Origin: Planctomycetota bacterium
GTDB taxonomy: Bacteria > Planctomycetota > Planctomycetia > JALXBF01
Direction: 5' to 3'
Length of the DNA stretch: 54,247 bases
Assembly: GCA_026991575.1 (NCBI GenBank)
Contig: JALXBF010000109.1
Coordinates: 1-54,247 of the forward strand
Part shown: piece after piece, positions 3,375 through 48,400 of the stretch
Position numbering within the stretch: position 1 is the stretch's first letter
How the letters are laid out: each line of letters starts with the position of its first letter
Position numbers and translations under genes: made by a program
The notes under the pieces: generated by a model
What the model saw: the letters and a program-made list of their open reading frames with translations, nothing else
Database searches by the model: none
Told to the model about the DNA's origin: nothing

Positions 3375-4148
3375 ATGATCCGTATCCTGGCTGCTGGCAA
3401 ATCCGTCAAGGGGCCCGTTCGCAAACGGAACGAGGATGCGCTGTTTCTGGACCCAGACCAACGGCTTTTCCTCGTCGCCGACGGCATGGGCGGACAACGG
3501 GGCGGCGAGCGGGCAAGCCAGCTGGCCATGAACGTCTTTGCCGAAACCATCTGCCCCTGGCCCGTTCCACCCGGAGCTCCGGACGAGGCGGTCGAGCAGC
3601 TGCTGCGCTCGGCAATCGTGAAGGCTAACAGCGAGATCATGAGCCTGGCATCGATCGAGCCGGCCTACCACGGCATGGGGACGACCATTGTCTTCGCCTA
3701 CTTCGTCCCGCCGGACCGTGCCTACGTCGGAGGCATCGGCGACAGCCGCTGCTACTACCTGCGCAATAACCAACTCCGCCAGCTCACCGAGGACCACTCT
3801 GTCGACCAGTACCTACGCAAGCACGGCCTGGTCGGCGAGGATCGTGCCATGGCCTCCCGCTTCCGTAACACCCTCTGGAATTACCTGGGTACGAAGGAGG
3901 CCTATGAAGGCACGGACATCCTCGTGCTGGCCGTGCGTCCCAGGGATCGGATGCTGCTGACGACCGACGGGCTCACGTCCGTGGTTAGCGATAGAGAGAT
4001 TGCCGAGCTGCTTCAGCAAGCCAGCACGCCGGACGAAGCCGTCTCGGCACTGGTGGGCGAAGCGCTGGCTCAGGGGTCGCGCGACAACATCACCTGTGTG
4101 GTCATCTTCTTCGAAGAGGCACCCCACGAAGATCAAACCGCGCAATAG
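3375..4148 (+). CDS. PP2C/PPM-family Ser/Thr protein phosphatase (Stp1/PrpC-like)
   Basis: Motifs RKRNEDA, VADGMGG, GMGTT, IGDSRCY, LTEDHS, LTTDGL, GSRDNIT. Confidence 0.95.
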   Translation: MIRILAAGKSVKGPVRKRNEDALFLDPDQRLFLVADGMGGQRGGERASQLAMNVFAETICPWPVPPGAPDEAVEQLLRSAIVKANSEIMSLASIEPAYHGMGTTIVFAYFVPPDRAYVGGIGDSRCYYLRNNQLRQLTEDHSVDQYLRKHGLVGEDRAMASRFRNTLWNYLGTKEAYEGTDILVLAVRPRDRMLLTTDGLTSVVSDREIAELLQQASTPDEAVSALVGEALAQGSRDNITCVVIFFEEAPHEDQTAQ

Positions 4149-7989: not shown

Positions 7990-9348
7990 ATGCGTCTCTG
8001 GCCCGAGCCGCTGGAGACCGTCTCGGGGCTGGCCACGGCGATCCGCGCCGGGGAGCTGAGCGCCAAGGAGGCGGCGGAGCGGTGCATCCGTCGGATCCAG
8101 CGGTTGGAGCACAAGTTGGATGCTTGGGCCTATATCGACTCTGACGATGTCATGGCTCAGGCAGCGTATCTGGACCGGCTGGCTGCCAAGCGCCGTTGGC
8201 TCGGGCCGTTGCACGGTGTGCCCATCGGGATCAAGGACATCATTGACGTTGCTGGTTGGCCGACCGGTTGTGGGTTTCCGCCCTGGCGGGAACGGCGTGC
8301 CCGGCGGGACGCCTGGGTCGTGCGGCGGTTGAGGATGGCTGGTGCGATCATCTTAGGCAAGACCGTCACCACGCAGTTCGCCGCCTTTGATCCCCCACCG
8401 ACCGCTAACCCGTGGCGCCATGACCGCACGCCGGGCGGGTCATCCAGCGGCTCGGCGGCGGCGGTGGCAGCGGCCATGTGTCCGGCGGCGCTGGGCACGC
8501 AGACTGGTGGGTCCATCCTGCGGCCCGCCGCCTATTGCGGTGTCGTTGGGCTGAAGCCGACGTTTGGCAGGGTGAGTGTGCGGGGGGTGTTCCCGTTTGC
8601 GCCCAGGCTCGATCACGTCGGTCCAATCACTCGTTCAGTACGCGATGCGGCCCTGTTGCTGGACGTGCTAGCCGGGCCGGATCCCCGCTCCGTGCGGTCG
8701 TCCCTGACAGCGACGCGGACCGTGGAGGCGTACGACGCGGCGGTTGATCGGTGCCACCTGCGGGTCGGACTGCTGTCGGCTTTCTTCAAGGAGCGCGCTA
8801 CGGAGGACGCTTGGTTGGTGGCGGAGCGGGCGGCGATGCTGCTGGCGCGGTCGGGGGCGCGGATCGCTGCCGTGGAGGAGATCTCTGCCGAGCTGATCGA
8901 AGACGTTCTGGCCGAGCACCGCGTGATCATGACAGCCGAGGCGGCGTTCGTGCACCGTAAGCTGTTCGCCCGGTACCGAGACGAGTACGCACCGCGAATC
9001 GGACAGGTCATCGAGGAAGGCAACCGCGTGTCGGCGGCACAGTACCTGGAGGCGTGCCGCGCACAGGATCGCTTCCGCCGCCTCGTACGCCGGCTCTTCG
9101 ACCGGTACGACCTGATCATCACGCCGGCCACGCCCGATCGAGCCCCAGATCGGTCCACCACGGGACCCCCCGTGTTCCAGTCGCCCTGGAGCTTTGCCGG
9201 CGTACCCACGATCGCTCTGCCGGCACGGCTCTCCGTGGACCAGCTGCCCCTGGGGGTCCAATTGATTGCCAACTGGGGGAGGGAACGCTGCCTGATCCGG
9301 GCCGCTGCGCTGGTGGAGCACTTGCTCCGCGAGGATGCTGGCCAGTGA
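7990..9348 (+). CDS. Amidase-signature family amidase
   Basis: GPLHGVPIGIKD, GGSSSGSAAAVA, GTQTGGSILRPA (Lys-cisSer-Ser triad). Confidence 0.93.
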   Translation: MRLWPEPLETVSGLATAIRAGELSAKEAAERCIRRIQRLEHKLDAWAYIDSDDVMAQAAYLDRLAAKRRWLGPLHGVPIGIKDIIDVAGWPTGCGFPPWRERRARRDAWVVRRLRMAGAIILGKTVTTQFAAFDPPPTANPWRHDRTPGGSSSGSAAAVAAAMCPAALGTQTGGSILRPAAYCGVVGLKPTFGRVSVRGVFPFAPRLDHVGPITRSVRDAALLLDVLAGPDPRSVRSSLTATRTVEAYDAAVDRCHLRVGLLSAFFKERATEDAWLVAERAAMLLARSGARIAAVEEISAELIEDVLAEHRVIMTAEAAFVHRKLFARYRDEYAPRIGQVIEEGNRVSAAQYLEACRAQDRFRRLVRRLFDRYDLIITPATPDRAPDRSTTGPPVFQSPWSFAGVPTIALPARLSVDQLPLGVQLIANWGRERCLIRAAALVEHLLREDAGQ

Positions 9349-9440
9349 CCCTGACGGTGCTGCCGGTGCCGTGGCGGCCGCCGAAGCGGCCAGCCGGTGT
9401 AGGATTTAGCGGTAGGCACATTCCAGAAAGGGGGCCTTCG

Positions 9441-12452: not shown

Positions 12453-14396
12453 CTACAGCGACCGCAGGTACTCAACGAGGGCTTCCATGTCCTCGCCCTG
12501 AATGTGGGCATGTTCCTCGGCGTTGTGCATGTATACGGCGTCCGCCAGCGTCTTGGCCCGTCCGTCATGCAGCCAGGGACCGTCATCCCAGGTTCCCCTC
12601 AGATCCGGGACATCGTACTCGTCCGGCTGGATCCGATCGCCGTTCGGCAGAACGAGCACGTCGGGCCGACCCTTGCCCGTACCCGGCGCACGACGCACGA
12701 TCAGCACCTCGTCGTGCGGGAAGTGGCACTTGGTGCAGCCGGCAATGTAGTCGCCCTCGAAGATCGCACGGCCGCGTAACGCCTTCTCCGTTAGCTCGCC
12801 GTTTGGCTTGCGGAATGGGTTGGGGACCTTCGGAATCGATAGCACATAGGCTTCCAGCTTGGCGATTTCGTCCGGCAATGGCTTGCCACCACGCATGACC
12901 TGCTCGATCGTCGGGAGGCACTCGTCGTTGCCCACCGTTCGGGCTTCCCCTTGCCAGCGGAACGGGCTCGTACCTGCAATGCCACGCAGCGATTTGATGT
13001 CCTTGAACGTGCCCAGGCCATCATCGGCCAGGTCCCACGCCAGCCGGGCGTTGTGCCCTTCCGGGTGGCACGTCGCGCAGGCGAACTGATTACGGTAGCA
13101 GAACAGCGAGGAGTTAAACAGAATCTCGCCCTCACGCAATCTGCTCCTCTCCGACGGCCCAACAGCGAAGCGACGCACCAGCTCCGACTTGTCCCCCACA
13201 CGAACGGCAGCGACCGTCTCGTTCAGACGCTCGACGACGTAGAGCCAACCGTCTGCCCCCGCAAGGCCCTGCGGATTGGCCGCCACCGTCACGTACTGTA
13301 CCCTGTCCCTGGCAAGCGAGGTGCGGGGACCGGGGGCCGAACTTGCGGTCGGTAACGCATCAAACCGCCTCAACAGCCACGCTGCGTCGATAAGCAGCAC
13401 GCGGTCCGCCGCGCCACACGCCACCACCAACCACCGCCGACCGCCTCCGTCGCGGACCAACACCAGGTCGTACGGATTGGCGTAATAACGTTCAGTAGTG
13501 TCCAGCACGAAGGCACGCACTTGGGGCGATTCGCCCAATCGGATCAGGCCGATAGCGTGGTTCCATGGCGCAGGTTCACCGGCAGCCGGTACGTCGGGTC
13601 GCGGGATCGAGTACGCGAAGGCAATGGTGCGATCGTCCAGGTAAGCGATGCCGCGCAGGTTGGCAGCAGGCTTGACGGGGATCGTCTGCAGCACGTCCAA
13701 GCTGTCGGCCGCCAGCAGCACAACGTACCGCTGCAGACCTGCGGCGTCACAGGTAACGGCTAGCGTGTTGCCGTTGGCGCTGAGGGCCATGTGCCGCGGG
13801 TTATCGGGCAGTCGCCTGCGAGCCACGACGCGTTTGGTCACCGGGTCGATGGCGCAGATCGTTTCGTCCTTGCCCATACAGGTGACATAAACCCGACCGG
13901 TAACAGGGTGCGTGATCAGGTCGAACGGCTGGTTGTCCACGGCGACGTGACAGATCGGGGCCTGAGAGCGAAGATCGAGAACGGTTACCGTGTCCGAGTA
14001 GCGGTTGGCCACATAGAGCGTTTCTCCGTCGGGTGACAGCGCGATCCCGTTGGGGTAGTCCTGGGCCGGCAGTTCGGCCAAGACCGTGCCCTTGGCAGTG
14101 TCGAGCACGATGACCGCTCTGGCGTTACTTGCGGAGACGTACAGACGGCCGCGGTCTGGATCGACTGCCGCACGCAGCGGGGTCCGGTAACGCCGGTCCA
14201 GTTCCGTCGGGTCCGGGGCAACCGTACGGAATGTTTGCGGGACCGCCGAACGATCCTCAACGAGCACGAGTTCTGCTGGCCGAGGCGCAAGAAGCGAAGC
14301 CAGGTCCAGGTAGCCGCTGAGCTGTAGGCTGAGCGGAATGAGCAGCAGTACGAGCAGGATGGCGAGCAGAAGCAGACGTCGCTGCACGCGTATCAT
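12453..14396 (-). CDS. YVTN beta-propeller + diheme cytochrome c peroxidase-fold fusion; hydrazine synthase beta-gamma-like paralog 2
   Basis: N-terminal TM anchor; propeller repeats (PNGIALSPDGETLYVANRYSDTVTVLD); CATCH and CTKCH; WDLADDGLGTFKDIKSLRG..PFRWQG; YDVPDLRGTWDDGPWLHDG; clearly paralogous to 43081-44925. Confidence 0.8.
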   Translation of the reverse strand: MIRVQRRLLLLAILLVLLLIPLSLQLSGYLDLASLLAPRPAELVLVEDRSAVPQTFRTVAPDPTELDRRYRTPLRAAVDPDRGRLYVSASNARAVIVLDTAKGTVLAELPAQDYPNGIALSPDGETLYVANRYSDTVTVLDLRSQAPICHVAVDNQPFDLITHPVTGRVYVTCMGKDETICAIDPVTKRVVARRRLPDNPRHMALSANGNTLAVTCDAAGLQRYVVLLAADSLDVLQTIPVKPAANLRGIAYLDDRTIAFAYSIPRPDVPAAGEPAPWNHAIGLIRLGESPQVRAFVLDTTERYYANPYDLVLVRDGGGRRWLVVACGAADRVLLIDAAWLLRRFDALPTASSAPGPRTSLARDRVQYVTVAANPQGLAGADGWLYVVERLNETVAAVRVGDKSELVRRFAVGPSERSRLREGEILFNSSLFCYRNQFACATCHPEGHNARLAWDLADDGLGTFKDIKSLRGIAGTSPFRWQGEARTVGNDECLPTIEQVMRGGKPLPDEIAKLEAYVLSIPKVPNPFRKPNGELTEKALRGRAIFEGDYIAGCTKCHFPHDEVLIVRRAPGTGKGRPDVLVLPNGDRIQPDEYDVPDLRGTWDDGPWLHDGRAKTLADAVYMHNAEEHAHIQGEDMEALVEYLRSL

Positions 14397-15104
14397 AGCC
14401 GGACTCCCGTTCTGCCAGCCCGACCGTGCACGTGGCCGTCTCGGTCGTCCCATCCACCCTATGCAGTTCTTGCTCAGTCGAGACGATCGCACGTATGGTC
14501 GGGCTCGCTACCGCTGTGCCACAGGCAGAAGAACGGACAGTACCGGCGGGCAGCTTGACGTTGCTACCGGTTTATACCCTTCGGTCCAGCGGCCAGTTCG
14601 GAGCGAGGACCAACGGACGACATGATGCAGACGCGGCGGGCCAGAAGCGACGGACGTGGCGTGGGTGCCAGGGGTACGAGTCTTTGCCGATGGTGCAGAC
14701 GCTGTCTGTGTGCGTCGTGAGGGGAGGAGACGGAAAAGCAAGCGGGCGGCGCGTGTGCTCATCGCTCGCCGCTGCGGCCCGAGGCGGGGGATTTGTCCCG
14801 GCTGCCGGTTTGCAGGGAAGCCAATCGCATCGGGCCGGGCCGGTAGCGCTCAGTCGGCGAAGCGTCCGCCGATGGGGTATCGTCGGTGATTCAGCCACGA
14901 CTTGCTCCGGGGCCGTGCATGTGGAAGCTTAGCTGGAGCCGGCCCCGGGGGCTCGGCCAGCAGCCGGGGCCGGCGGGGGCAGGGAAGCGACCCGGGGTTG
15001 GCCGGAGTTCGGCTTCACGCCGTCCCGTGTCTTCGGCTCATCCTCCTGGCGACTAGCTGCGAGGATAGCCGGCGCGATGCCCGCGCCTCTGCTGATGGGA
15101 CCTG

Positions 15105-18405
<3,301 letters not shown>

Positions 18406-30676: not shown

Positions 30677-30913
30677 CCGGTTTCGGCGGCCAGTTCGGCC
30701 CTGGCTGCAGCGATGGTTGTCAACGGTGGTACGGAAACACACAATAGCAAGTGTCATGGTAGCCCGACGGGGGTCTCGAGTGACCGCCGTTACTAGAGTG
30801 TGACGCACGCGTTCGATGGTGGTTTGGCCTGGCCGCCCCCGCCACGGGGCCGGGGTGGCCGACCACGTCGCCAGGATCGCTTTTGGTGCGTTGCCGCTAA
30901 AGGAAACCGAACC

Positions 30914-31969
30914 ATGAGACCACTGCTCAGGGAACTGCCGCCATTACTCGCAGCGCTAGTGATCCTGCTGGGCTCGGCTGCAGTGCGCGCGGAGGACAAT
31001 GTCCTGACGCGCGACGGCAAGCGGATCCGGGGCAGCATCGTGTCCGAGTCACGGAGCGAAGTCGTGGTTCGGACGCGCGGCGGCACGACGGAACGGATCC
31101 CCACCGATCAGGTGGAGCGGATTCAGTACGATGGGCCGACCGGCGTGGCACTGACCCAGGCGTTCTTCGCCGAGCGGGCCGGGCGGTTCGAGCAGGCGCT
31201 GAAGCGGTACGATGAGGTGATTCAGCAGAGTGCTGCCGGCTCGCCCCCCCAACTTGCAGCCCGGTTTGGCCGCGTGCGCGTGCTGGCCAAACAGGCGCTG
31301 TTGGACCCGAGCAGGGCAGCGTCCGCGATCCGGGCGCTGCAACAGTTCGTGACTCGTTACAGCTCAAGCCGCCATTACTACCCGGCCCTGGTCCTGCTGG
31401 CGCGCCTGGAGCTTGCCTCGGGTGATCAGAACGCTGCTGCCGAGACGCTGCGCTTGCTGGAACAGGCACCTTTGGCTGGGTTCCGGGCGACTGCGGTGAT
31501 CGAGTCGGCGCGGTTGCAGGCGGAAGCGGGCCAGGCGGCGCAAGCCGAGCAGAAGCTCCGCGCGCTGCTGGAGGAGAAGCTGCCGCAGGAAAGCCAGTGG
31601 CGGGCTCGGTTGGCGCTGGCCGAAGTACTGGCTGCGTCGGGAAAGTTCGACGAGGCGGAGAAGCAAGCCAGGCGTGTGATCGACGCGGTGCCTGCCGAGA
31701 ACGCGGCACTGAACACGGAGGCGTTCCTTGTGCTGGGGCGCATCTACGAGCGGGCCAAGAAGCCGATCGATGCCATCCTGGCCTACCTGTACATCGATCT
31801 CAACTACCCGAACGCGGGCCAGGCACGGGCTCAGGCGCTGGCCCGCCTGGCCGAACTGTGGCAGGAGGTCGGGCGGCCCGATCGGGCACGGCAAGCGCGG
31901 GAACAACTCGTACAGGACTATCCGAACAGCCGCTGGGCACAACAGCTCAAAGCGGCTGAAGACCGGTAA
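30914..31969 (+). CDS. Secreted TPR protein
   Basis: Signal peptide ending AVRA; short beta N-domain; TPR helices; DAILAYLYIDLNYP and LVQDYPNSRWA C-terminus. Confidence 0.8.
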   Translation: MRPLLRELPPLLAALVILLGSAAVRAEDNVLTRDGKRIRGSIVSESRSEVVVRTRGGTTERIPTDQVERIQYDGPTGVALTQAFFAERAGRFEQALKRYDEVIQQSAAGSPPQLAARFGRVRVLAKQALLDPSRAASAIRALQQFVTRYSSSRHYYPALVLLARLELASGDQNAAAETLRLLEQAPLAGFRATAVIESARLQAEAGQAAQAEQKLRALLEEKLPQESQWRARLALAEVLAASGKFDEAEKQARRVIDAVPAENAALNTEAFLVLGRIYERAKKPIDAILAYLYIDLNYPNAGQARAQALARLAELWQEVGRPDRARQAREQLVQDYPNSRWAQQLKAAEDR

Positions 31970-36878: not shown

Positions 36879-38210
36879 ATGCTGCCGAACCGCCTCCGTC
36901 GCCGCCGCTGGAAGGCTGCCCTGGCTGGCTTCATCTTGCTGGTTCTTGCGGGGACCGTAGCGGCCCGTCTATGGCGCGGGGACATGGCGGCATCGTCGGT
37001 ATCGCCGCCGGCGCCGGCCGCTGGGCAGGCCGTCGTGCTCAAAGACGCCTACGTGCCGAAAGGGTTCACGGTCCACGAGGCTCAGGCCATCTTTGATGCG
37101 CTCGCCAGGCAGATGCCGCTGGCGGCGGATGCATTCCGCAGAAGCGCCCACTACCGCGAGGGTATGACCTGTGTGACCTGCCATCAGGAGCTGCGCTGGG
37201 ACCAGGCCAGCGGCTCGGTGGATGTCACTTCGCTGGGACGCGTTCCGCCGGAGCGGTGCGGCGAATGCCATGAGCAGGAGTACGACGGTTTCCGAAAGAG
37301 TCGACACTTCAAGGCGGTGACCGTCTTCCGGGAGGTGGTTCGCTACAAGGCGCTGGCCGGCTACCCGGCCATGCAGCAGCAGGGCTGCAATCGTTGCCAC
37401 GAACCGATCGGTCAGAGTTGTTCAGCCTGCCATCCGGCCCACCTCTTCGAGCCGCCCAGACCGCCAAAGGACGAGTTCGGCGGGTGCCAGCGGTGTCACC
37501 TGGGACCCGACCACCACCAGCTCGAATCGTACGTAGCCAGCGTGCACTACCAGGTCGCGCGCGCCCGGGGGGACGGGATCCCTAACTGCGTGTTCTGCCA
37601 CACTGCCGACGACAACAAGCACCACATCTTCCGGATCAAGGGCACCAAGGACCATGGCAGGACAGCGCTGATGGCCAAGTGCACACAGTGTCACACGGAG
37701 CAGTTCGCTCGCCGAGCATTCGAAGGCATCGACGCCATCAAACATGAAACGAACAAGGTTGTCGATGCAGCGCGGCAAATCATTCGGGATCTGTATGCCG
37801 ACGGGATCCTCAACCGCGTCTCTGGCTCACTGACCGACGAGCAGGGCCTGCCCGCTCTGAACCCAAACCTGACCGCTTACGACCAGCATGTCCATCCAAT
37901 CGAGAACTTGATGTTCCGCATGTTCAAATACGATGCCGTGGCAACGATTGCCGGTGCTCAGCACTTCAGCGCAGTACGCACGCACTGGTACGGCCACGCT
38001 CAGCTCATGGAGACTTACAACCGCATCCGGCAAATGGCGCAGGAGCTGCGGTTCATGCATGCGCTGAGCAAGAAACTGGGCGTGCCGCTGCCGTCGATTC
38101 CCGTCTACCGCTACACGCACGAGACCGGCCGCGAGCTGGACGAACCATGGCACGATCCGGTGGGCTACCGCAAGAGATTGGCGGAGTTCTACAGCGAGGT
38201 CAATGAGTGA
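36879..38210 (+). CDS. Hydroxylamine oxidoreductase (HAO)-family multiheme cytochrome c with 7 CxxCH motifs
   Basis: TM anchor; CVTCH, CGECH, CNRCH, CSACH..H.F, CQRCHLGPDHHQLESY..SVH, CVFCH, M..CTQCH; helical C-terminus with GAQH..HWYG; spacing is typical of HAO/epsilon-Hao hemes 2-8. Confidence 0.85.
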   Translation: MLPNRLRRRRWKAALAGFILLVLAGTVAARLWRGDMAASSVSPPAPAAGQAVVLKDAYVPKGFTVHEAQAIFDALARQMPLAADAFRRSAHYREGMTCVTCHQELRWDQASGSVDVTSLGRVPPERCGECHEQEYDGFRKSRHFKAVTVFREVVRYKALAGYPAMQQQGCNRCHEPIGQSCSACHPAHLFEPPRPPKDEFGGCQRCHLGPDHHQLESYVASVHYQVARARGDGIPNCVFCHTADDNKHHIFRIKGTKDHGRTALMAKCTQCHTEQFARRAFEGIDAIKHETNKVVDAARQIIRDLYADGILNRVSGSLTDEQGLPALNPNLTAYDQHVHPIENLMFRMFKYDAVATIAGAQHFSAVRTHWYGHAQLMETYNRIRQMAQELRFMHALSKKLGVPLPSIPVYRYTHETGRELDEPWHDPVGYRKRLAEFYSEVNE

Positions 38211-38286
38211 ATGGGTTACCCGGCCGACGAAAGTCGTCGCGGGCCGCGGAGCCACTGTCCTGGAGCGAATCGGGAGGAGCTGAGCC

Positions 38287-39606
38287 ATGAGTGATGCTTT
38301 CGGTGCGCTTCATCGCCGCCGTTTTCTGAAGCTATCTAGCGGCATCGCCATTGGGAGCTGGACGGCCGCAGCGGCTACCGCCGCGTCGGCTCGACCAGCT
38401 GTATCGGCTGCTGAGACGGTAACGGTCGCGATTATCGGATGCGGTATTCGAGGTGGCCATCTGCTGCGCGCGTTTCAGCGGGTGCGGGGCTGCACCGTGG
38501 CCGCTGTGTGCGATGTCCATCGCGGCCGCCTGGCCAAAGCGCGCGACGCCGCAGGCAGCAGCGTGATGGCAACCACTGACTATCGCCGCATTCTCGATCG
38601 CAAGGACATCGATGCGGTCGTGGTGGCCACGCCTGATCAATGGCACGTCCTGATAACGATCCACGCATGTCAGGCCGGCAAGGATGTCTATGTCGAGAAG
38701 CCGCTGGGTGTGACGATCGCCGAAGGACGTGCCGCCGTGCGCGCGGCCCGAAAGTACAACCGGGTCGTCCAAATCGGCACGCAGCAACGCAGCTGGCCGC
38801 ACTATGCCGAAGCGGTCGAGATCTTAAGGTCAGGCGAGCTGGGCACCATCAGCGAAGTGAAGGTGTGGGACTATGAGAACCAATACCCAGGCTTTGGGAA
38901 CCCGCCCGACGAGCCGGCACCTGCGGAACTGGACTGGGACTTCTGGCTGGGACCGTCCCCTCTGGTGCCGTACAACCGCAACCGGTATCTCCACCACTAC
39001 TGGTTCTTCGACTACGGCGGTGCCTGGCAAGTCGACTGGGCCGTCCATCACTATGACATCGTCCACTGGGCCATGGGCGTGCGGTGGCCCCGGACGGCGA
39101 CAGCCAGTGGCGGCAAACTGTGCTTTGAAGACAACCGAGAATGGCCCGACACGTTCGAAGGGATTCTCGAGTACGGACCATGTGACCTGGCACCGAAGGG
39201 GTTCGTGCTGCAGTACACGTTCCGAGGGGGCTGTCGGCGGGAGCGGCACAACCACGCCAAACTGTTCTGCGGCACCCACGGTTCAATGCTGCTGGACCGC
39301 AGCGGGTACTACATCCTGGCCGAAACGCACCGCGGACAGCGGGTGATCAAGAGCAGGGAGGTGCGGGCCAAAGAGCCGCCACGTCACCAGGAAGCGTTTC
39401 TGGAGAATGTGCGTGAGCGGAAGCGGCCGTTTGCCGACATCGAGGAAGGCCATTACGCCACGAATCCCGGGCACCTGCTGAACATCGCCTGGCGACTGGC
39501 CAGGAAGATCGTCTGGGACGGCGAAAAGGAGCAGGTCCTCGGCGATGAGGAGGCCAACGCACTGCTTGGGCGGAAGTTTCGCGCTCCGTGGGAGCTGACG
39601 ATCTGA
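38287..39606 (+). CDS. Tat-exported Gfo/Idh/MocA oxidoreductase
   Basis: HRRRFLK twin-arginine leader; IIGCGIRG; ATPDQWH; KDVYVEKP; QIGTQQRS; LDWDFWLGP; DWAVHHYD. Confidence 0.93.
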   Translation: MSDAFGALHRRRFLKLSSGIAIGSWTAAAATAASARPAVSAAETVTVAIIGCGIRGGHLLRAFQRVRGCTVAAVCDVHRGRLAKARDAAGSSVMATTDYRRILDRKDIDAVVVATPDQWHVLITIHACQAGKDVYVEKPLGVTIAEGRAAVRAARKYNRVVQIGTQQRSWPHYAEAVEILRSGELGTISEVKVWDYENQYPGFGNPPDEPAPAELDWDFWLGPSPLVPYNRNRYLHHYWFFDYGGAWQVDWAVHHYDIVHWAMGVRWPRTATASGGKLCFEDNREWPDTFEGILEYGPCDLAPKGFVLQYTFRGGCRRERHNHAKLFCGTHGSMLLDRSGYYILAETHRGQRVIKSREVRAKEPPRHQEAFLENVRERKRPFADIEEGHYATNPGHLLNIAWRLARKIVWDGEKEQVLGDEEANALLGRKFRAPWELTI

Positions 39607-40117
39607 TGCTCGGAGCTGGGAGCTGGGAAGTTGGATGGACAGGCTGCCCGAGGGGGTGAACTCGTCGGCTCTTGGAGCGTGGCTGTCAAAGGTCGTGGTT
39701 CCTTTTGTTGGTGACCCGACGGCCGGGCGCAGGACTCGGAGCCGCGGCAGTCAGTCCTACGGCCACGGGGGCTGCCTGCGACGCTGCGCGCAGGGGGACG
39801 CCGCCACGGGCGCGGCACTGGCTTCTGTTCGCCGACGGAAGTGCTGGCCCGAAGTGCCAGAGCGACCCCGATACTGCCTGCGCCGACCAGGCGAATACCC
39901 CCCACCACGGCTGCCGGGGAAGGGACGATGCCGCTCGGTGCCGCTGGTTAATGGGCCGTTGGGAGCGCGGAACCGGTGTCTTCAAGAATGCCACGGTGAG
40001 AGTGGGACAGGTGAGGGTATCCGGTTCGATCGACCCCCGGCGCAGCTCACGCGGCATGGCGGCTGTGAAAGCCGCTCGAATGGCTGGCCTGAGGAGCTGT
40101 TCTGGTTGAGCGAAGCC

Positions 40118-40144
40118 GGCGAGGGGGATTGGTCCCCCTTCGCC
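40118..40144 (-). terminator. GC-rich hairpin 70 nt downstream of the HZS-alpha-like gene (possible terminator, no U tract)
   Basis: GGCGAAGGGGGA-CCAA-TCCCCCTCGCC on the minus strand. Confidence 0.35.
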
Positions 40145-40213
40145 AGCTCGTTGCGGAGATCTGGTGGGCCGGTACGGCGCTGCGACGGCAGCCCGATCCG
40201 CGGCCTTGCCGTC

Positions 40214-43027
40214 TCACCGGCTCAGGGCATAGGCCGGGCTGGTCAGTTCCGGGCCGGTGGTTATCCGGACGCGGATGCGCCAGGCACCGGAGAAGTTGTG
40301 CACCTTGAACAGCAGCTGGTTCTCTCCCTTGCGCAACCTTACCGGGATCACGTCCCAGTCATACCAGAAGGGCTGACGTACCAGCCGTTGGATCATGGGC
40401 TGACCGTTCACGAACAGCTCGAACATATCGTCGGCCGTAACACGCACCCAGACCGTCTGGTCTCGGTCAGAAGGCACGATGGCCAGCGCGTACGCAGTGG
40501 CGGGACCGGACGGTCTGAGCACCCGGCCCAGATTCAGGACGCCGGTCGGCTCATCCACGTGAACTTCTTGCCACCCGATCTGGCCGCTCGCTGCCGAGAA
40601 CTTTGCCCCCGGATCGAACCGCTGCTGCTCGGGACCGAAGCGGGTGCGGATGCCGGCTGCGCCACGGTTGTCGAACGGGCCGCAGACGTACCAATCCCTC
40701 ACTTCGCCGGCATTGTCGGTGAGAGTGTGGACGTAGCGGGCAATCAGCTCCACCTCTTCGTCTTTGATCCAGTTCCTGGCCTTTTGCTGCATGTTCCGCA
40801 CGGTCTCGAGCCATTTCGCCATGCTGCGCCTGAGCCCCAGGAACTTCCGAAGGCCATGACACCGCGTGCAGCGCACTTCGGTGGCCTGCTTGCCGTCGGT
40901 GAAGGTGATCTTTGCGTAGTCGGGCTGCCTAGCGCGCCACTGCTGAGCGAGCGCCGCGCTCTGCTTGCGGTTGTAGCCCGGGTACGGGTCTGGACCGGGG
41001 ATGTTGTCCCATTGAGCTCCGAGGTCGATCCACAGAGCGAACAGACGTTTCTCTTCGTCGGTGAGCGGCTCGTCAGGCGGACATTGATTGACTTCGGTGT
41101 TGTACTCGAACGAGTACCCGTACAGCCGCCAGATGAGTGGGCTCTTGCGCGCAAAGCCCGGGTAGATGTACTTGCCGGTGCGGTAGTCGGCCGGGGCACA
41201 CAAGCTTAAGTACGACTTGCTGAAGAACGCCCCGTTGATCTCGTAGGCGCGGTCGGGCATGGTGACGCGCGGGATGAACACGAGCTTGTCACCACCGGAA
41301 AGATCCAGCCCCCCTTCGGCTTTCTTCTCGTTATGGCATCGCACGCACTTGCGTTCGATAATCGGGATCAGGTCGCGGCGGAAGTCGACCGTTTTTCGGT
41401 CTTCGGGCTTGGTTACAAGATCGACTGGTCCGGCGGTGGCGGCCAGCGGCACGCGGTCCAGGAGCGGCGGCCGACTTCGCCGCTCGTGGCAGCCGACACA
41501 GGTGCGATGCTCTCCGGGCCGGACCCAGATCCAGGTGAGCGCATCCTGCAGTGCCATGCCGTTCTCGTCAAGCACCTGAAGATGCAGCACCGTATCGGCT
41601 GGTACCTTGACGTAGAACGAACCGTCGCTGGCCACGGGCGCCTCGCCCACAACCCGCTTCTGTTCGAAGTTGCTGATGGAGTTGGTCGATGAGCCGAAGG
41701 AGGAGAAGCCGATGCCGGGCAGCAGCGTGCGGAAGGTGTCGTTGTCGTCCTCGACACCGAAGCCCTCGATGATCCGGACCCGCTTGATCTGCCCCGGCTT
41801 GATGAACGCTTCCTTGTCCGTCTGACCGATGTAGGCGTTCAGGCACAGCAGCGTTCCCCAGTTCTGATGGCGGGCGATGTTGTGGTCGGGGATGATTGGT
41901 GGTTTGGGCCGAGCTTCCACATAGATCGGGTTCAGTGCCTGGTAGTTCGGGTCGTTGTACACGGGCGCCCCTCGCTTGCGGGCCTCAATATCGAACCAGT
42001 AGATGCCAAACTGCGCCTTGGGCCCCTCAGGGTTGCGGTAGCCGCTCCAGCAGGGCGGCGGTGACCAGCAGACCAGCAGGCGGCCGTCACGGGTCGGGTA
42101 CGGATCGCGATAGCGGCCCCCGGGAGTGTTCGGCCCGTACAGGCGGACGTCAGGAGTCAGATTGACCATGGCCTTGCGATCGTCCGGGTCGCCCGGGGTC
42201 AGTAGCGCGAGCGCGCCGCCGCCGTAGGCATGGTGGAAGACGCTTTCGATGTACACGATCCGCCCGTCGGGCAGCTCGCGCTGTTTCCACCGGAAGCCGC
42301 CGCGATGGTTGCCATAGAAGTCGATGAACTCGGTGCCGTCCGGGTTCATCGTGAACAGAGCGGATGCACCAGAGGTGTGGAACCGCATGCCATGATGTTG
42401 CCAGCTCTGAAACAGCACCCGCCCGTCGCTGAGTACGATGAACTCCGAGTCGGAGCTGAGGTTGAAGGAGATCTGTTCCACGTTGCTACCGTCCGGATCA
42501 CAGCGGTGGACTAGCCGGGCATAGTCGCGGTCATATTCATCCCGCCGCTTGTGCGGATCCATGGCCACATGGCGTGTGGAGCTGAAGATGATCCGGCCGT
42601 CAGGCAGGTAGTACGGCGAGCAGGCGTCGGCCATGCCGCGCGTGATCTGTCGTTTGTTCTTGCCGTCCAGGTCCATCTCCCAGATTTCCCAGCCATCCTG
42701 TGGCGTGCGTCGCCCGGAGAAGATGATCTTGGTGCCGTCGTAGCTGAGCTCCGGTTCGTCGGCACCGTAGAACTCCGGTGTCAACACCGTCAGCTTCCCG
42801 TCCGGGCGGGGGGGCGAGAGCTTCACGATCTCCATTCCGGGCACATGCGCAGACTGCCCGAAGTGGTACATGAACGGCTCGTAGTGGATGCCGGGCCGTC
42901 CGTTCGGACGATTCTTGATCCGCACGAAGATGATCGCCCCTTCGTCCCGGTTCACCTCTTCGGCGTAACTGGCAGGGACGGCCACGATGGCCGCGACGAA
43001 AGGCAGAACTGCTAACCACCACTTCAT
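40214..43027 (-). CDS. Hydrazine synthase alpha-subunit-like protein with three CxxCH motifs and an added C-terminal beta-sandwich domain
   Basis: Signal peptide; TolB-like propeller (PYYLPDGRIIFSSTR, RDEY..DGSNVEQISFN, SWQHHG, LFTMNPDGT, GRYRDPYP); HZS-alpha middle domain GEAPVASDGSFYVKVPADTVLHLQVLDENGMA..WIWVRPGE..CVGCHE; VDFRRDLIPII..KCVRCH; extra CTRCH. Confidence 0.85.
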   Translation of the reverse strand: MKWWLAVLPFVAAIVAVPASYAEEVNRDEGAIIFVRIKNRPNGRPGIHYEPFMYHFGQSAHVPGMEIVKLSPPRPDGKLTVLTPEFYGADEPELSYDGTKIIFSGRRTPQDGWEIWEMDLDGKNKRQITRGMADACSPYYLPDGRIIFSSTRHVAMDPHKRRDEYDRDYARLVHRCDPDGSNVEQISFNLSSDSEFIVLSDGRVLFQSWQHHGMRFHTSGASALFTMNPDGTEFIDFYGNHRGGFRWKQRELPDGRIVYIESVFHHAYGGGALALLTPGDPDDRKAMVNLTPDVRLYGPNTPGGRYRDPYPTRDGRLLVCWSPPPCWSGYRNPEGPKAQFGIYWFDIEARKRGAPVYNDPNYQALNPIYVEARPKPPIIPDHNIARHQNWGTLLCLNAYIGQTDKEAFIKPGQIKRVRIIEGFGVEDDNDTFRTLLPGIGFSSFGSSTNSISNFEQKRVVGEAPVASDGSFYVKVPADTVLHLQVLDENGMALQDALTWIWVRPGEHRTCVGCHERRSRPPLLDRVPLAATAGPVDLVTKPEDRKTVDFRRDLIPIIERKCVRCHNEKKAEGGLDLSGGDKLVFIPRVTMPDRAYEINGAFFSKSYLSLCAPADYRTGKYIYPGFARKSPLIWRLYGYSFEYNTEVNQCPPDEPLTDEEKRLFALWIDLGAQWDNIPGPDPYPGYNRKQSAALAQQWRARQPDYAKITFTDGKQATEVRCTRCHGLRKFLGLRRSMAKWLETVRNMQQKARNWIKDEEVELIARYVHTLTDNAGEVRDWYVCGPFDNRGAAGIRTRFGPEQQRFDPGAKFSAASGQIGWQEVHVDEPTGVLNLGRVLRPSGPATAYALAIVPSDRDQTVWVRVTADDMFELFVNGQPMIQRLVRQPFWYDWDVIPVRLRKGENQLLFKVHNFSGAWRIRVRITTGPELTSPAYALSR

Positions 43028-43080
43028 GGCTGTCGTCTCCTTGTAACGGTGCTGGCCACGAGCGCGGGCAGGCGGCGGAC

Positions 43081-44925
43081 TCAGAGGGAAAGCAGGTAGG
43101 CAATCAGGTCCGAGAGCTCTTGCTCGGTCAGCTGCGACGTCTTGCCGTGCTTGTCCTCAGGGTTGTACTTGGTGAAGACCTCACGAAGCGTTCGCGCACG
43201 GCCGTCGTGCAGGTAGGGGGGGCTGTCCCAGATGCCCACCAGCTGCGGGACGTCGAACTGAGTGGGGTAGATCGTGTTGCCGGAAGGCAACTTCAGCGGA
43301 GCGTACCGCCCCTTACCGGTGCCCACGTCGCGCCGCTTGCGGTTCGTGAACTTCGGCCCGCTATGGCACTTGATGCAGCGAGCCTTCCCTTCGAAGATCT
43401 GCTTGCCGCGGCGAGCCGCCTCGCTCAGCGAGCCGTCCGGCATGCGATACGGATTCGGTACCAGCGGCACGGAGCGGACATAGCTTTCCAGCGCCTCCAG
43501 ATCGGCCGGCGACAGGGGGCTCCCGCGCATGGCGAGCGTCACCGTCGGCCCGCACTCATTCGCGCCGATTTCGGCTGCCTCGCCTTGCCAGCGGAACGGA
43601 CCGGTACCGTCCACACCGCGGAAGCTCCGGATGTTCTTGACGTTGCCCAGCCCGTCGTCTTCCAGGTCCCAGCTCAGACCGGTCGTGTGTCCTTCCGGAT
43701 GGCAGCTCGCACAGGAAAACTGACGCTGGAAGCAGAGCGTCGCCGAGTTGTACAGGATCTCGCCACGCCGACGCATCGTGATCCTGGCAGTTTCGCCCAC
43801 CGGGATGCTCGTGCCCACGGTCAGGTGCCCGAGGTCGATGACGGAGAGCGTGTCGGCGAGCCGGTTGGCCACCACCGCCACATCGGCTCGCGGCACCAGC
43901 GCGATGCCATACGGATTGCGCCCCACCGGGATCACCGCCAGCCGATACGGCCGGCTCGCTCCAAGCGGCACATAGCCGCGTTGCCCCTTCAGCCTGCTTG
44001 CTTCCGCCAACAGCCGAGGCAGGTCATACACCAACACCTCATCAACGCCGGCGCAGACCACAAACAACCGACGGCCCTCCGGACCGACGGCTAGCCCGTA
44101 CGGGTTGGCGAAGTAGCGGTGTGCCTCGTCCAGGATCACAGTCTGAACCTGGTCCTTGGAGGCCGTGTACCGGATGAAGCTGATCGCGTTGTTGTTCACC
44201 CAGCCCTGGCGAACCTGCGTCAACGGCACAAACGGCTTGGGAATCAAGTGGGCCACGGCAAGAACGCCGGGGGCTACCTCGATCAGATCCCGTAGGTTGC
44301 TGGCTGGCCGAAGCTCGAAGCGGCCGACGATCTTGCCGCTGGCCAGCTCGATCTGCACCACGGGCCTGCTCAGGTCGTAGGCGTCGCAAGCGACAAACAG
44401 GTACCGACCATCCCGGCTGACGGCCAGGTGTCGCGGATTCTGGGCCACGCTGATGCGACGCAGCAGCGTGCGCTGTGCCACGTCGATTTCCACGACCACT
44501 TCGTCCTTGCCCATGCAGCTAACCCAGAGCCGATCACGCCCGGTCCACTCCACGTCGTACGGTTGGTTCGGCACCGGCACGGTTGCGGCGACCTGGAGGT
44601 CGGGCAGCGTAAACAGGTAGAGCTCGTCGCTGTAGCGACACGCGACCGCGGCCAGCTTGCCGTCGGCTCGTACAGCAACGCCCGTCGGCTCGCGCCCCAC
44701 AGGCGTCTCCCGCACGACCTGGCCGCCGTCCAGGTCAACCAGGCTGACGGAGTTGCCCTGGTGGTTGGTGACGACTACCAGCGCTGTGCCCGGAACGGCA
44801 GCGACCTGAAGCGGCGATCGATAGTGGGGCTGATCGGCCGGCGAGGCGGTAGTGCTGGGCGCCAGGAGCAGGAGCACCGGTAGCAGGAAGAGCAATTGCG
44901 TACGAGGCTGCTGCTTGGCGTGCAT
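43081..44925 (-). CDS. Hydrazine synthase beta-gamma-like fusion (YVTN propeller + diheme CcP/MauG-like domain)
   Basis: Signal peptide; YRSP start; PKPFVP..QGWVNNNAI, LDE...FANPYGL; FQRQFSCASCHPEGHTTGLSWDLEDDGLG..KNIR..RG..PFRWQG; CIKCH; DVGTG; FDVPQL..PYLHDG; DKHGKTSQL; GGAGG RBS. Confidence 0.85.
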   Translation of the reverse strand: MHAKQQPRTQLLFLLPVLLLLAPSTTASPADQPHYRSPLQVAAVPGTALVVVTNHQGNSVSLVDLDGGQVVRETPVGREPTGVAVRADGKLAAVACRYSDELYLFTLPDLQVAATVPVPNQPYDVEWTGRDRLWVSCMGKDEVVVEIDVAQRTLLRRISVAQNPRHLAVSRDGRYLFVACDAYDLSRPVVQIELASGKIVGRFELRPASNLRDLIEVAPGVLAVAHLIPKPFVPLTQVRQGWVNNNAISFIRYTASKDQVQTVILDEAHRYFANPYGLAVGPEGRRLFVVCAGVDEVLVYDLPRLLAEASRLKGQRGYVPLGASRPYRLAVIPVGRNPYGIALVPRADVAVVANRLADTLSVIDLGHLTVGTSIPVGETARITMRRRGEILYNSATLCFQRQFSCASCHPEGHTTGLSWDLEDDGLGNVKNIRSFRGVDGTGPFRWQGEAAEIGANECGPTVTLAMRGSPLSPADLEALESYVRSVPLVPNPYRMPDGSLSEAARRGKQIFEGKARCIKCHSGPKFTNRKRRDVGTGKGRYAPLKLPSGNTIYPTQFDVPQLVGIWDSPPYLHDGRARTLREVFTKYNPEDKHGKTSQLTEQELSDLIAYLLSL

Positions 44926-45002
44926 GGCGTGCCTCCAAGCTTCTTGGATTCGCTGGCGGGCCCGGCGGCGGATCGGCGGGTGCGGCAGGAGGAAAGTTAT
45001 TG

Positions 45003-45050
45003 AATGTCGATCCACATTACATAGATTAGCCGCCGCACGCACCCTGTCAA
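45003..45050 (-). promoter_or_regulatory. sigma70 promoter TTGACA-N16-TAATCT of the HZS-like operon with palindrome AATGTGGATCGACATT at the inferred TSS
   Basis: -35 at 45045-45050, -10 at 45023-45028; 7/8 inverted repeat at 45003-45018; AT-rich island. Confidence 0.65.
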
Positions 45051-45448
45051 GACCCCGGCGGCATCGGAGCTGCGGCGAGGCCTGACCGCTCGAGTCGGCC
45101 AGTGTCATACTCAGACGAGCGGTCACCCGGTGGGCTGAAGCGCGCCAGAGCGGCGGCCACGGCGTTGTGCGCCTGGTCGACCCCAGCACCGCTGCGCGGC
45201 TGCGGCTACCGCGGCGGCACGTCACCGTCAGGTCAGCCGGACTGCCTGCGCCGTGCCGGTCCGTGCGCGGCGTCGCTGTACAATAGTGGGCACCCGCGCG
45301 GCAGAACCGACGGGGCCACCTCCAGGCTGAAGACTTCTATCGTGGAGAACACGCGCTGGTCGATCTTAATAGCGGGTGCCCGGACCGCGACCGGTCCGCG
45401 TAGCAACCGCATCTCCACAGCTGGACGTGCTAGCGTGGGTAAACGTCC

Positions 45449-48400
45449 ATGAGCAGCAGTGTTCAGAAGAGGCCCGTCACCGCCTTCCTGGTTGCACTCC
45501 TGTCCTGCCTGGCCGTCGTTCGGGCGGCTGCTTGGGGCCAAGCGGGAACCGGCGTACAGGAGCGGGCGCCTGATCCCGCCGCGCTTCGGCAGCTGAAGGC
45601 CGCGGCGCGTTTCTTTCAAGAAGGCAAGTACGACTTTGCCGCGGACACGTACCGCGAGTTTCTGAATCGCTACGGGCAGATGCCTGAGGCTGAGGAGGCC
45701 CGCTTCTTCCTGGCCGAATCCCTCATGCTCCTGAAGCGCTATGACGAAGCGCACCGCGCCTACCAGGACTATCTCCAGCGTCATCCCGATGGTCGCTACC
45801 TGCCCTGGGCCCGATTCCGACTCGGCGAGTCGGCGTTTCTTGCCGGACGGTGGCAAGAGGCAATCGAGCAGCTCCGTGCGTACGTCTCGCAGCACGGTGG
45901 CCATCGGATGGTGCCATACGCGGAGCGGTACATCGGTGAGGCGTTGTTGAAGCTGGGCCGCAATGAAGAGGCGGAACGCCAACTTCGGGCCACGATCCGC
46001 CGGTACCCGAAATTGCCGGTGACGGACCACGCTCGCTATGCCCTGGCTCAGCTGTTGGAGGCCCAGCAGCAGCGGGACGAAGCGTTGCAGTTCTACTTGG
46101 TGGTTGGCCAGGGGAACTCATCCGTTGCGGATGACGCGCTGCTGGCTGCCGGCACCATCGAATACGCTGCCGGGCGGTACGCGCATGCGCAGAAGCTGTT
46201 CGAGACGCTGTTGCAGCGGTTTCCACAGAGCAAACTTCGGTGGACGGCTCACTTCAACGCCGGACTCAGCCTGTTTCGTCAAAAACGCTACGCTGCAGCC
46301 GAAGGCCACTTCATGCTGGTTGCCGGCGCACGGAAGGGTGATGAGCTCGGGTTGGAAGCCGCCTACTGGCTGGGCCGCTGTCTGGCCGAGCAGGGCAACG
46401 GCGACGAGGCAGCGCGCCGGTTGGCCGAGCTGGCCGACCAGGCAGTCAAGGCGGGCAAGGTCGATCTGGCGGCGCGCGCACTGTACGAAAGTGCTCGAAC
46501 GCTTGCGCAGAGTGGCGATGTCACAGCGGCCGTGACCCGATACCTGGCGGTTGCAAGCCGCTTCCCCGAGCACGAACTGGCCGAACAAGCAGCCGCGCAG
46601 GCCGTGTTCACCGCGGCACGCAGCGAAGCGAACGCCAGGGCGATCGAGCTGGCCGACAGCTACTTGCAGACGTTCCCCGAAGGCAAACGCCGTGCTCAGG
46701 TGGCGCTGGCCGCTGTGCGCGCCGCGCTGGCGGAGCGCAAGCCGGACGTGGCCGAACGATGGGTCAGGATCGCTTTGCAGGACGGCGACCAGACCGTGAT
46801 CCGCGCCGGTCGGTACTACCGCGCGCTGATCGAGGCTGATCGGGGGGCTTATGCCCAGGCCGTGCAGACGCTCGACCCGTTGCTCACCGATGCCGAAACG
46901 GCGCGGGTCTTGCCGGAAGCCTACTTCCTTGCGGGCCGGTGTGCCTATCAGTTAGGCCGGTATGCAGACGCGCTGAAAGCGCTTGCAGTGTTCTTGCAAA
47001 CGCAGCCCGACGAGGAGTTGGCGGCGCATGCGCGCGCGTACCGCGTGGTCTCCTTAGCGCATCTGGGGCAGTTTGACGGCGTTCTCGAGGAGCTGCAGCA
47101 GTTGGCCGATACGGCGGACGTGCGCATCCCAGCTGCGCTTGCAGCCGCGGACGCCTTCTATGACCGGGAAGCTTATGAGCCAGCTGCGACGTTGTACGGC
47201 ATCGTCGTTGCCGCGGAAGGCGTCGACGAGCAGGACCGGGCCTACGCGCTGGCCGGCCGCGCCTGGGCACGCTTCTACGCGGGCCGGATCGACGAGGCGT
47301 TGAGCGATGCCGACGAGTTCCTCAAGCGATACGCGGACCACAAGTTGGCGGCCGAAATGCTTCTCTTGACCGGCTTCGCCCACAAGCAGGCTGGAGCGAT
47401 CGACAAGGCGCTGGCAGCGTTCGATCGTCTCGTGAGACGCTACGCCGACAGCGATCTGGTGGTCGATGCGCTGCTTGCGCGCGCCCGGCTGCTGGTGCAA
47501 GCGGACCGGTCCGCGGAGGCACTGGCCGCGTATGCCGACGCGCTCGCCATCCTCCGCAGCGGTCAGCAGAGCAGCCGCGCGGGGCGGAGCAAGGAGGACT
47601 CTGATCGCGACCTGGCCGGGGTGCTCGGCGAGTATGCCTGGGCGCTGTGGAAGGCGGGCAAAGTGGACGAGGCGATAGCGCACTATCGTGAGTTAATCCA
47701 GCGCTTCCCCGACGCGCCCGGCACGGCCAAGGCCGAGCTGAACCTGGCCCAGCTGCTGCTGGACCGCAACGACCCGGTGGCACGCCAGGAGGCGGTAGCT
47801 CTAGCTACAAAGCATCTGTCGGCCGGTGATTCGGAGTTGCGGGCCGAGGCATCGTTCCTGCTGGCCCGCGCCGCTTTTGCGGAGGCGGACTGGTCGCAGG
47901 TGGAGAAACACTGCCGCAACTATCTGGAAATCGCCGCCGACGGTCCTCGCGCGGCTCAGGTCTACTACATGCTGGTCGAGGCCCTCTACGAGCAGCAGAA
48001 GGGCAACGAGTTGGGCGACACGCTACAACGGGCCCTGGCCGTGACGAACCAGGACGCGCCATGGCGGGGCCGGTTGCTGCTGCGACGGGCTCAGTGGCTC
48101 ATCGGCCAGCGAAGATGGCAGGAGGCGATCGAGGCGCTGCGGCCGCTGCTGGGCGATCCGTCGAATTCTCTGCGACCGGTTGCCGAATACTACAGAGGTA
48201 GGGCGCTGTACGAGCAGGGCAAGCTCAACGAGGCGCTCGCTGCGTTCAAGGAGGCGCTGGCGGCGGAGGATGCTGAGTTAGCGGCGCGGGCGCAGTTCAT
48301 GATCGGCGAGACGCTGTTTGCGCAGCGGCAATTCCGTGCCGCGATCCGCGAATTCCTAAAGGTAGACCTGGTCTATGACGTTTCACGCTGGCGAGCCGCG

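Follow-up and report, generated by a model that had tools for sequence, protein, structure and literature searches.

Hydrazine synthase (HZS) of anammox bacteria was, as far as we know, long believed to have no relatives, and hzs-like genes serve as markers of anammox. Co-localised homologues of HZS outside the anammox bacteria are divided into clades I-IV and judged not to be hydrazine synthases in the sections used here of a recent study (Hagglund et al. 2025, Genome Biol Evol, PMC12758564), and the corresponding sections of another paper report, for Phycisphaerae UBA1845, that hzsA-like genes precede fused hzsBC-like ones, proposing a broader enzyme family with other substrates (FEMS Microbiol Lett 2023, PMC10732223). 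Our literature search found no functional study of any non-anammox HZS homologue. Here we analyse a stretch of 54,247 nucleotides (positions 1 to 54,247 of contig JALXBF010000109.1, assembly GCA_026991575.1 of a Planctomycetota bacterium; hereafter the window), in which two adjacent minus-strand genes encode a fused HZS beta-gamma-like protein followed by an HZS alpha-like protein. Judged by sequence, the two proteins are true but distant homologues of all three parts of HZS, and they very probably form a complex that belongs to the HZS family without being a hydrazine synthase. The operon belongs to a widespread and already published family; a first-pass annotation of the same DNA had placed its novelty in the full set of parts, a claim overtaken by the papers of 2023 and 2025, in which co-localised alpha-like and fused beta-gamma-like genes are already described from non-anammox Planctomycetota as well as from other phyla.

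The elements of the operon are the following.

43081-44925, minus strand: fused HZS beta-gamma-like gene, 614 aa, with a putative signal peptide and a Shine-Dalgarno-like GGAGG upstream; NCBIfam hydrazine_BC, 217 bits (cut-off 1250)
43028-43080, minus strand: intergenic spacer, 53 bp, with AAGGAG ahead of the alpha-like ATG
40214-43027, minus strand: HZS alpha-like gene, 937 aa, with a putative signal peptide; NCBIfam hydrazine_alpha, 288 bits (cut-off 800)
45023-45050, minus strand: promoter-like site, TTGACA (45050-45045), 16-nt spacer and TAATCT (45028-45023); unproven

The open reading frames (ORFs) and their spacing bear out the first-pass description of two co-oriented genes for secreted haem proteins lying 53 bp apart, secretion being suggested by N-termini that, by eye, look like Sec signal peptides. 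The longest reading of the first frame (ORF1) covers 43081-45225, and its start was taken as Met 44925 because an identical protein of 614 aa is stored in the database. No terminator-like site was reported by the site scan in the gap between the two genes. The sigma70 promoter proposed earlier has a perfect -35 box and a -10 box that agrees with the consensus at 3 of 6 positions, and it remains unproven because a consensus promoter scan of the minus strand over 39500-45600 gave no promoter-like site there. GC content is 0.63-0.70 along the window, in keeping with the earlier description of the DNA as GC-rich. The motifs quoted at that stage all occur in the translations (FSCASCH, GHTTGLSWDLEDDGLG, PFRW, DVGTG and DKHGKTS in the beta-gamma-like protein; DGSF..VPAD, RPGE..CVGCH and VDFRRD..CVRCH in the alpha-like protein), but the list of haem motifs was one short, since the alpha-like protein has an additional CTRCH (residues 720-724); CxxCH motifs thus number 2 in the beta-gamma-like protein and 3 in the alpha-like protein. 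On the opposite strand, an ORF of 524 aa without a family (39635-41209) overlaps the 3' third of the alpha-like gene, and its overlapping part is probably a spurious artefact of GC-rich DNA, since the alpha-like C-terminus is conserved in orthologues.

Searches with phmmer against the sequences of the Protein Data Bank (PDB) matched the fused protein to the beta chain of HZS (5c2v_B, E 6.9e-34, residues 137-463 of the longest ORF1) and to its gamma chain (5c2v_C, E 1.2e-38), and the alpha-like protein to the alpha chain (5c2v_A, E 7.3e-64) in three stretches spanning residues 77-686. The alpha-like protein also matches the Pfam family HZS_alpha (PF18582) with E 6.3e-27. Its AlphaFold2 (AF2) model (pLDDT 78.6, pTM 0.75) retrieves 5c2v_D/A first in Foldseek (E ~1e-38, target-normalised TM 0.67-0.68, ~27% identity over the fold alignment), the runners-up being TolB structures with E ~4e-9. 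Domains, haem motifs and key residues of the two proteins are distributed as follows.

43837-44817, minus strand: seven-bladed YVTN-type beta-propeller, HZS beta-like (residues 37-363); matched by 5c2v_B and by Pfam YNCE and Lactonase
43087-43776, minus strand: dihaem domain of the cytochrome c peroxidase (CCP)/MauG type, HZS gamma-like (residues 384-613); matched by 5c2v_C
43699-43713, minus strand: CASCH, haem gamma-I-type motif (residues 405-409), invariant in 20 of 20 orthologue rows
43588-43590, minus strand: Trp446, aligned to Kuenenia gamma His144; Trp in 20 of 20 orthologue rows
43552-43554, minus strand: Cys458, equivalent of gamma Cys165 by alignment; Cys in 20 of 20 orthologue rows
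43363-43377, minus strand: CIKCH, haem gamma-II-type motif (residues 517-521)
41483-41794, minus strand: HZS_alpha middle domain, Pfam PF18582 (residues 412-515)
41486-41500, minus strand: CVGCH, haem alpha-I-type motif (residues 510-514), followed by E515 (20 of 20 orthologue rows) and with no Tyr591 equivalent
41333-41347, minus strand: CVRCH, haem alpha-II-type motif (residues 561-565)
41081-41083, minus strand: Cys649 in 'CPP' ('MPP' in related proteins), in the region of anammox His772
40856-40870, minus strand: CTRCH (residues 720-724), the third haem motif of the alpha-like protein, within an additional class-I cytochrome c domain; unchanged in all 20 orthologue rows
40253-40696, minus strand: C-terminal all-beta, sandwich-like domain (residues ~778-925), from the AF2 secondary structure

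The extra class-I cytochrome c domain and its haem are absent from anammox HzsA. The C-terminal 250 residues of the alpha-like protein match no Pfam family and no PDB sequence below E 0.035; an Atlas search with this part gave a weak lead to cytochrome c/PA14 clusters, with scores of at most 0.85.

The comparison with HZS residue by residue was numbered on an anammox locus (L022, genome G167), in which the HzsA CxxCH His falls at 587 and Cys102, Cys105 and His106 of HzsC equal the published Kuenenia numbers. In the sections used here of the published work on HZS, Tyr591 is proximal to haem alpha-I and His587 and Cys303 hold zinc (PMC12607021, PMC12758564), haem alpha-I is Tyr-ligated and irreducible, and gamma Asp168 is the proposed proton supplier at haem gamma-I for hydroxylamine formation (Versantvoort et al. 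2025, PMC12607021). The window proteins keep both gamma CxxCH, both alpha CxxCH and the equivalent of gamma Cys165, the third haem-linking Cys, which is the only tested HZS-specific residue retained; Cys458 is accordingly in place for a third covalent link to haem gamma-I, the bond itself being predicted. Lacking are the zinc/Tyr591 site, the bis-His haem alpha-II, gamma His144 and Asp168, and the beta-loop Glu. In the alpha-like protein, the stretch of Cys303 is deleted, a 2-residue gap falls at Ser590/Tyr591, CVGCH itself being retained, and His772 aligns to Pro, with a conserved Cys two residues before. This Cys649 is present in 17 of the 20 orthologue rows, namely in all 17 close orthologues, the remainder showing 2 Met and 1 Lys. 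The 'MPP' of related alpha-like proteins resembles the motif that supplies the Met ligand in c551 and other small class-I cytochromes, and the replacement by 'CPP' in the 17 close orthologues suggests a His/Cys-ligated haem in place of a His/Met one. In the gamma-like domain, the position of Asp168 is occupied by Thr461 (Thr in 19 of 20 orthologue rows), that of Glu122 by Asp, and two anammox-specific inserts are absent. As for the beta-like propeller, the Glu of the anammox 'AENG' loop is missing, the loop aligning to a 'VRQGW' stretch, and two other Glu that the Kuenenia-numbered row has in the same stretch are matched by Gln and Arg, the numbering of Glu253 being uncertain.

These differences bear directly on the possibility that the operon encodes a genuine hydrazine synthase, or another enzyme forming N-N bonds, in a non-anammox planctomycete, which we regard as extremely improbable. 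The complete beta-gamma and alpha architecture in the anammox order, the retained equivalent of gamma Cys165 and the placement in the same alpha superclade as anammox HzsA (100/98) would all fit such an enzyme, but every other tested HZS-specific residue is gone. The NCBIfam equivalog models (NF052339-NF052342) point the same way, for besides the alpha and BC fusion scores given above, the gamma model reaches 139 bits against a cut-off of 625 and the beta model 132 against 560, so that all four scores lie some 3-6 times under their cut-offs. Moreover, the host has no hydrazine dehydrogenase (HDH) to use the product, and Hagglund et al. (2025, PMC12758564; sections used here) also ruled out HZS for related clades.

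The host is not an anammox bacterium. Its genome (G000; 4.96 Mb in 191 contigs, 97.8% complete) contains no HDH, the best model match being 82 bits against a cut-off of 900, and neither NrfA nor NirS over their cut-offs, with weak propeller matches only. HzsA scores over the NCBIfam cut-off in 17 of 401 Planctomycetota genomes, and all 17 share the phylum alone with the host. Complete HZS architecture outside anammox bacteria, as claimed in the first-pass annotation, therefore holds in its full domain set, anammox gene order and non-anammox host; a host within the Brocadiae, which that annotation had named as the outcome that would undo its reading, is contradicted by a position outside the anammox class. 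The closest named homologues of both proteins come from metagenome-assembled genomes of Fuerstiella, Planctomycetaceae, Pirellulaceae and Rubripirellula. Elsewhere in the genome, a 500-aa frame on contig C114 (locus L111, ~30701-31702, plus strand) matches the HDH/HAO-type model at 82 bits against 900, and a dihaem CCP gene lies ~9 kb from it.

The phylogenetic position of the window lineage was examined with a careful tree of alpha proteins (IQ-TREE, LG+C20 with posterior mean site frequencies, 41 rows picked by hand from the 100 rows of a FastTree), rooted on alpha-like proteins without the beta-gamma partner layout. In this tree, anammox (100/100) joins the FG-GAP-type clusters (100/99) with support of 99/98, this group is sister to a second clade with beta-gamma upstream (100/100) with support of 97/94, and the window clade (100/100) branches outside all of these within a superclade of 100/98. 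The FastTree of 100 rows recovers the same superclade (99) and is unresolved inside it. Forcing the window clade together with anammox costs 18.0 log-likelihood units (approximately unbiased test, p-AU 0.036), a weak result because the tested group was named after the tree had been inspected. The idea of a sister form of anammox HZS, put forward in the first-pass annotation, is thus rejected for alpha, given that anammox joins the FG-GAP-type clusters and not the window lineage.

Quick trees of the other parts are less decisive. The gamma tree (52 rows) shows a three-way split of the window clade (97), anammox (100, with a stem of 2.59) and the FG-GAP-type clusters (95) below a branch supported at 91; the second clade with beta-gamma upstream falls elsewhere and lacks Cys165. 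In the beta tree, which contains 36 of the 52 rows after 16 FG-GAP-type rows were left out, anammox is weakly (84) joined with the lineages having beta-gamma upstream. Anammox HZS therefore has the window lineage among its closest relatives, the alpha tree arguing against a sister relationship that the beta and gamma trees do not resolve. A match to the gamma subunit well beyond generic relatives, as had been asserted from the sequence, is not borne out, for many non-anammox proteins are closer to both window proteins than anammox HZS is.

The family is large. HMMER searches of 1.84 billion cluster representatives found 1062 alpha-like clusters with E<=1e-30, a number that rises to 4294 with E<=1e-10, and a pattern scan of GTDB species genomes, built from a 12-row alignment of closer sequences, gave at least 602 matches, of which at least 587 are confirmed relatives; among the matches listed are Planctomycetota, Verrucomicrobiota, Acidobacteriota, Chloroflexota, Gemmatimonadota, Myxococcota and other phyla. 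In the host's class, 137 of 401 genomes have beta-gamma-like proteins at E<=1e-60, yet within these 401 genomes a beta-gamma match of at least 45% identity, besides that of the host itself, is found in a single member of the same family (G001; 58%, on short contigs). An alpha-like protein at E<=1e-20 is present in 4 of 41 relatives, the host included. The close orthologue group comprises ~30 clusters, with identities of 54-82% for alpha and 48-80% for beta-gamma, and has both genes on the same contigs.

Gene arrangement was compared in 80 fetched loci, some of which end early among those without a beta-gamma gene. The order of the window, with beta-gamma immediately upstream of alpha, is found in 7 of the 80, plus the window and G001, and the stop-to-stop gaps between the frames of the adjacent pair range from -43 to +51 nt in these 7 loci. 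Alpha is followed after 1.0-3.7 kb by beta-gamma in 36 loci and directly by beta-gamma in 1, and another 36 have no beta-gamma gene in the available stretch. Natural fusions also exist: BLASTP against both window proteins resolves P0091 (1323 aa) into an alpha-like part (residues 85-641) and a beta-gamma-like part (722-1323), and the long clusters P0093 and P0095 carry the same Pfam sets, the three fusions spanning 1266-1323 aa. From the homology to a solved complex, the conserved tight adjacency and the natural single-chain fusions, we infer that the two proteins would assemble as HZS does.

Two independent periplasmic haem proteins lying merely side by side, without forming a complex, would account for the 36 alpha-like loci with no beta-gamma gene in reach and for the frequent occurrence of beta-gamma without alpha, as in the window itself at 12453-14492 and in the 137 class genomes that contrast with the few having alpha. 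We find this very improbable, however, given the conserved spacing, an arrangement that matches the solved HZS complex and the existence of single-chain forms.

The host genome holds five beta-gamma-like and two alpha-like genes. The beta-gamma-like gene at 12453-14492 of the window (minus strand) has 2 CxxCH, keeps the Trp and the Cys165 equivalent, and has no alpha-like neighbour; in both the gamma and the beta tree it groups with the window clade, on a long branch, and upstream of it lie 15105-16892, without a family, and then guaB. The second HZS-like pair of the host is found on contig C65 (locus L027, 6207-10684, plus strand), with alpha (827 aa) preceding beta-gamma (640 aa); GH43, GH39 and GFO/IDH/MocA genes flank this pair, and its alpha falls in the outgroup of the alpha tree.

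With respect to function, we lean slightly towards the view that the operon encodes an enzyme of the HZS protein family, periplasmic and with five haems, that makes no hydrazine and works in the following manner. Electrons would enter via class-I cytochrome c domains, for which the invariant third CxxCH of alpha would provide additional transfer capacity, and reach the gamma-II-type haem, from which the conserved Trp of the CCP/MauG type would pass them to the gamma-I-type haem. The latter, carrying the third Cys link of HZS, would reduce a small oxidant, for which nitric oxide (NO), hydroxylamine and peroxide are candidates, and alpha haem I, an ordinary His-ligated CxxCH haem, would act, inside a buried pocket, on the product or on a second substrate. 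The nature of the reaction itself, reduction of a small inorganic oxidant, is proposed more tentatively by analogy with HZS, and we hold it at slightly short of an even call.

A bolder version, which seems improbable to us, is that the window lineage has kept an ancestral HZS layout (beta-gamma before alpha, with a triple-thioether gamma-I haem) in which NO would be converted to hydroxylamine, as in the first half-reaction of HZS, and the product passed to a His-ligated alpha haem doing no N-N coupling, the His/Cys haem having a very low potential. If this were true, the operon would offer a living model, in a non-anammox heterotroph, of the enzyme from which hydrazine synthase evolved.

Several observations count against the proposed enzyme. 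The substrate is a guess from homology, the biochemistry being known for anammox members only, and visual inspection was the sole means of assigning both the signal peptides and the promoter. The absence of Asp168 weakens the idea of NO reduction to hydroxylamine. Simple peroxidase chemistry of the gamma-like domain appears doubtful as well, because this domain is without the loop segment that follows the FWDG-type motif in a canonical CCP of the host (C87); in bacterial CCPs this segment carries the catalytic Gln/Glu. Furthermore, the alpha protein of locus L032 (59-4375) groups with the window alpha (59% identity), whereas its gamma part groups with the other clade having beta-gamma upstream and has no third Cys. 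In view of these different placements, the alpha and gamma trees are not congruent, which points to an exchange of partners among lineages unless the trees are wrong. Finally, the neighbours in sister loci are mostly carbohydrate-related and not genes of the nitrogen cycle.

The last point leads to an alternative that we consider unlikely but not negligible, in which the complex would serve carbohydrate metabolism, either by oxidising or modifying a sugar-derived compound through MauG-like long-range oxidation or by taking up electrons from sugar oxidoreductases in the periplasm, with the organic substrate bound by the alpha propeller and the C-terminal beta-sandwich. Two genes lie just downstream of the operon and are convergent on it.

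36879-38210, plus strand: cytochrome with 7 CxxCH and an N-terminal anchor, downstream of the operon and convergent
38287-39606, plus strand: GFO/IDH/MocA oxidoreductase with a twin-arginine signal, 77 bp after the cytochrome gene

This pair (36879-39606) could be a periplasmic electron-transfer module; upstream of the operon and divergent from it are genes for a TPR protein and ExbB. The carbohydrate alternative further draws on loci with beta-gamma next to alpha, which carry GH81, heparinase II/III-like, sulfatase, FGGY kinase and DeoC aldolase genes, together with ABC sugar-type permeases, 3-keto-disaccharide hydrolase, ThuA and a xylose-isomerase-like TIM barrel. The GH43, GH39 and GFO genes beside the C65 pair, the galactose-binding domains (F5/8 type C or NedA-like) to which alpha-like paralogues are fused and the weak lead (0.85) from the alpha C-terminal part to cytochrome c/PA14 clusters would fit as well. 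However, planctomycetes and their allies are rich in carbohydrate-active enzymes, sulfatases and GFO genes, so such neighbours may be no more frequent than expected by chance; no neighbour is common to all loci, the GFO and cytochrome genes of the window lie on the strand opposite to the operon, and no carbohydrate-binding family was detected in the alpha-like protein with Pfam or PDB sequences.

In the closest named relative (L031, alpha 62% identity), a nitrite/sulfite reductase (NIR_SIR) gene lies directly upstream of beta-gamma, and the gene directly downstream encodes another alpha-like protein, which has an F5/8 type C domain (features 2110-3879 and 8792-11812), followed by xylose-isomerase-like and ThuA/DUF7133 genes.

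Whichever reaction the HZS-family complex may catalyse, complete hzsBC-hzsA-like operons occur in ordinary planctomycetes incapable of anammox, and hzs-like matches can therefore not be counted as anammox potential. The window adds to the material for reconstructing the origin of HZS a lineage with the anammox gene order and a Cys in place of a Met haem ligand. Since the family exceeds 1000 clusters with no assigned function, a single biochemical characterisation would annotate many genomes.

Compared with the solved HZS of Kuenenia (PDB 5C2V), the window proteins have the same parts: the TolB-like propeller, middle and cytochrome domains of alpha, the YVTN propeller with a loop in blade 6, and the dihaem CCP-like domain. 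They share with anammox HZS the order beta, gamma, alpha, with all three encoded together, four homologous CxxCH sites and the third Cys at haem gamma-I, and a fusion of beta and gamma is also reported for Scalindua. They differ in an alpha-like protein enlarged by a cytochrome c domain and a beta-sandwich, in lacking the Tyr591/Zn site, His772, gamma His144/Asp168, the beta-loop Glu and the anammox inserts, and in a host without HDH that does not belong to the anammox class.

Dihaem CCP/MauG proteins (PF03150) likewise have two c-type haems in two domains, and a Trp lies between the haems where the section of PMC12758564 used here places it, but in the window protein the dihaem part shares a chain with a propeller and has an alpha-like partner; this gamma-like domain scores 22.9 bits with Pfam CCP_MauG, under the gathering threshold of 25.6, and matches to other CCP/MauG models are weak.

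The nearest described systems are the clusters of Hagglund et al. (2025, PMC12758564), which, in the sections used here, also combine co-localised alpha-like and fused beta-gamma-like genes in non-anammox planctomycetes, with Trp at gamma 144, the 2-residue gap at alpha 590-591 and loss of the beta Glu; clade I moreover keeps Cys165, as the window protein does. In clades I-III, as in the UBA1845 genes (PMC10732223), alpha lies upstream, whereas in the window this position is taken by beta-gamma. An FG-GAP/CRTAC1 gene, which the window operon is without, stands between alpha and beta-gamma in clades I-II and upstream of alpha in clade III, and clade I bears ~eight extra haems on beta-gamma, whereas the window protein has no N-terminal haems and the third haem is on alpha. 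The layout of clade I can be seen at a locus of the spaced type in our own set (L038), in which the gene in the gap encodes an FG-GAP/ASPIC-UnbV protein and beta-gamma carries cytochrome c554 domains. In relation to such FG-GAP-type clusters, the window lineage forms a separate and deeper branch of the alpha tree.

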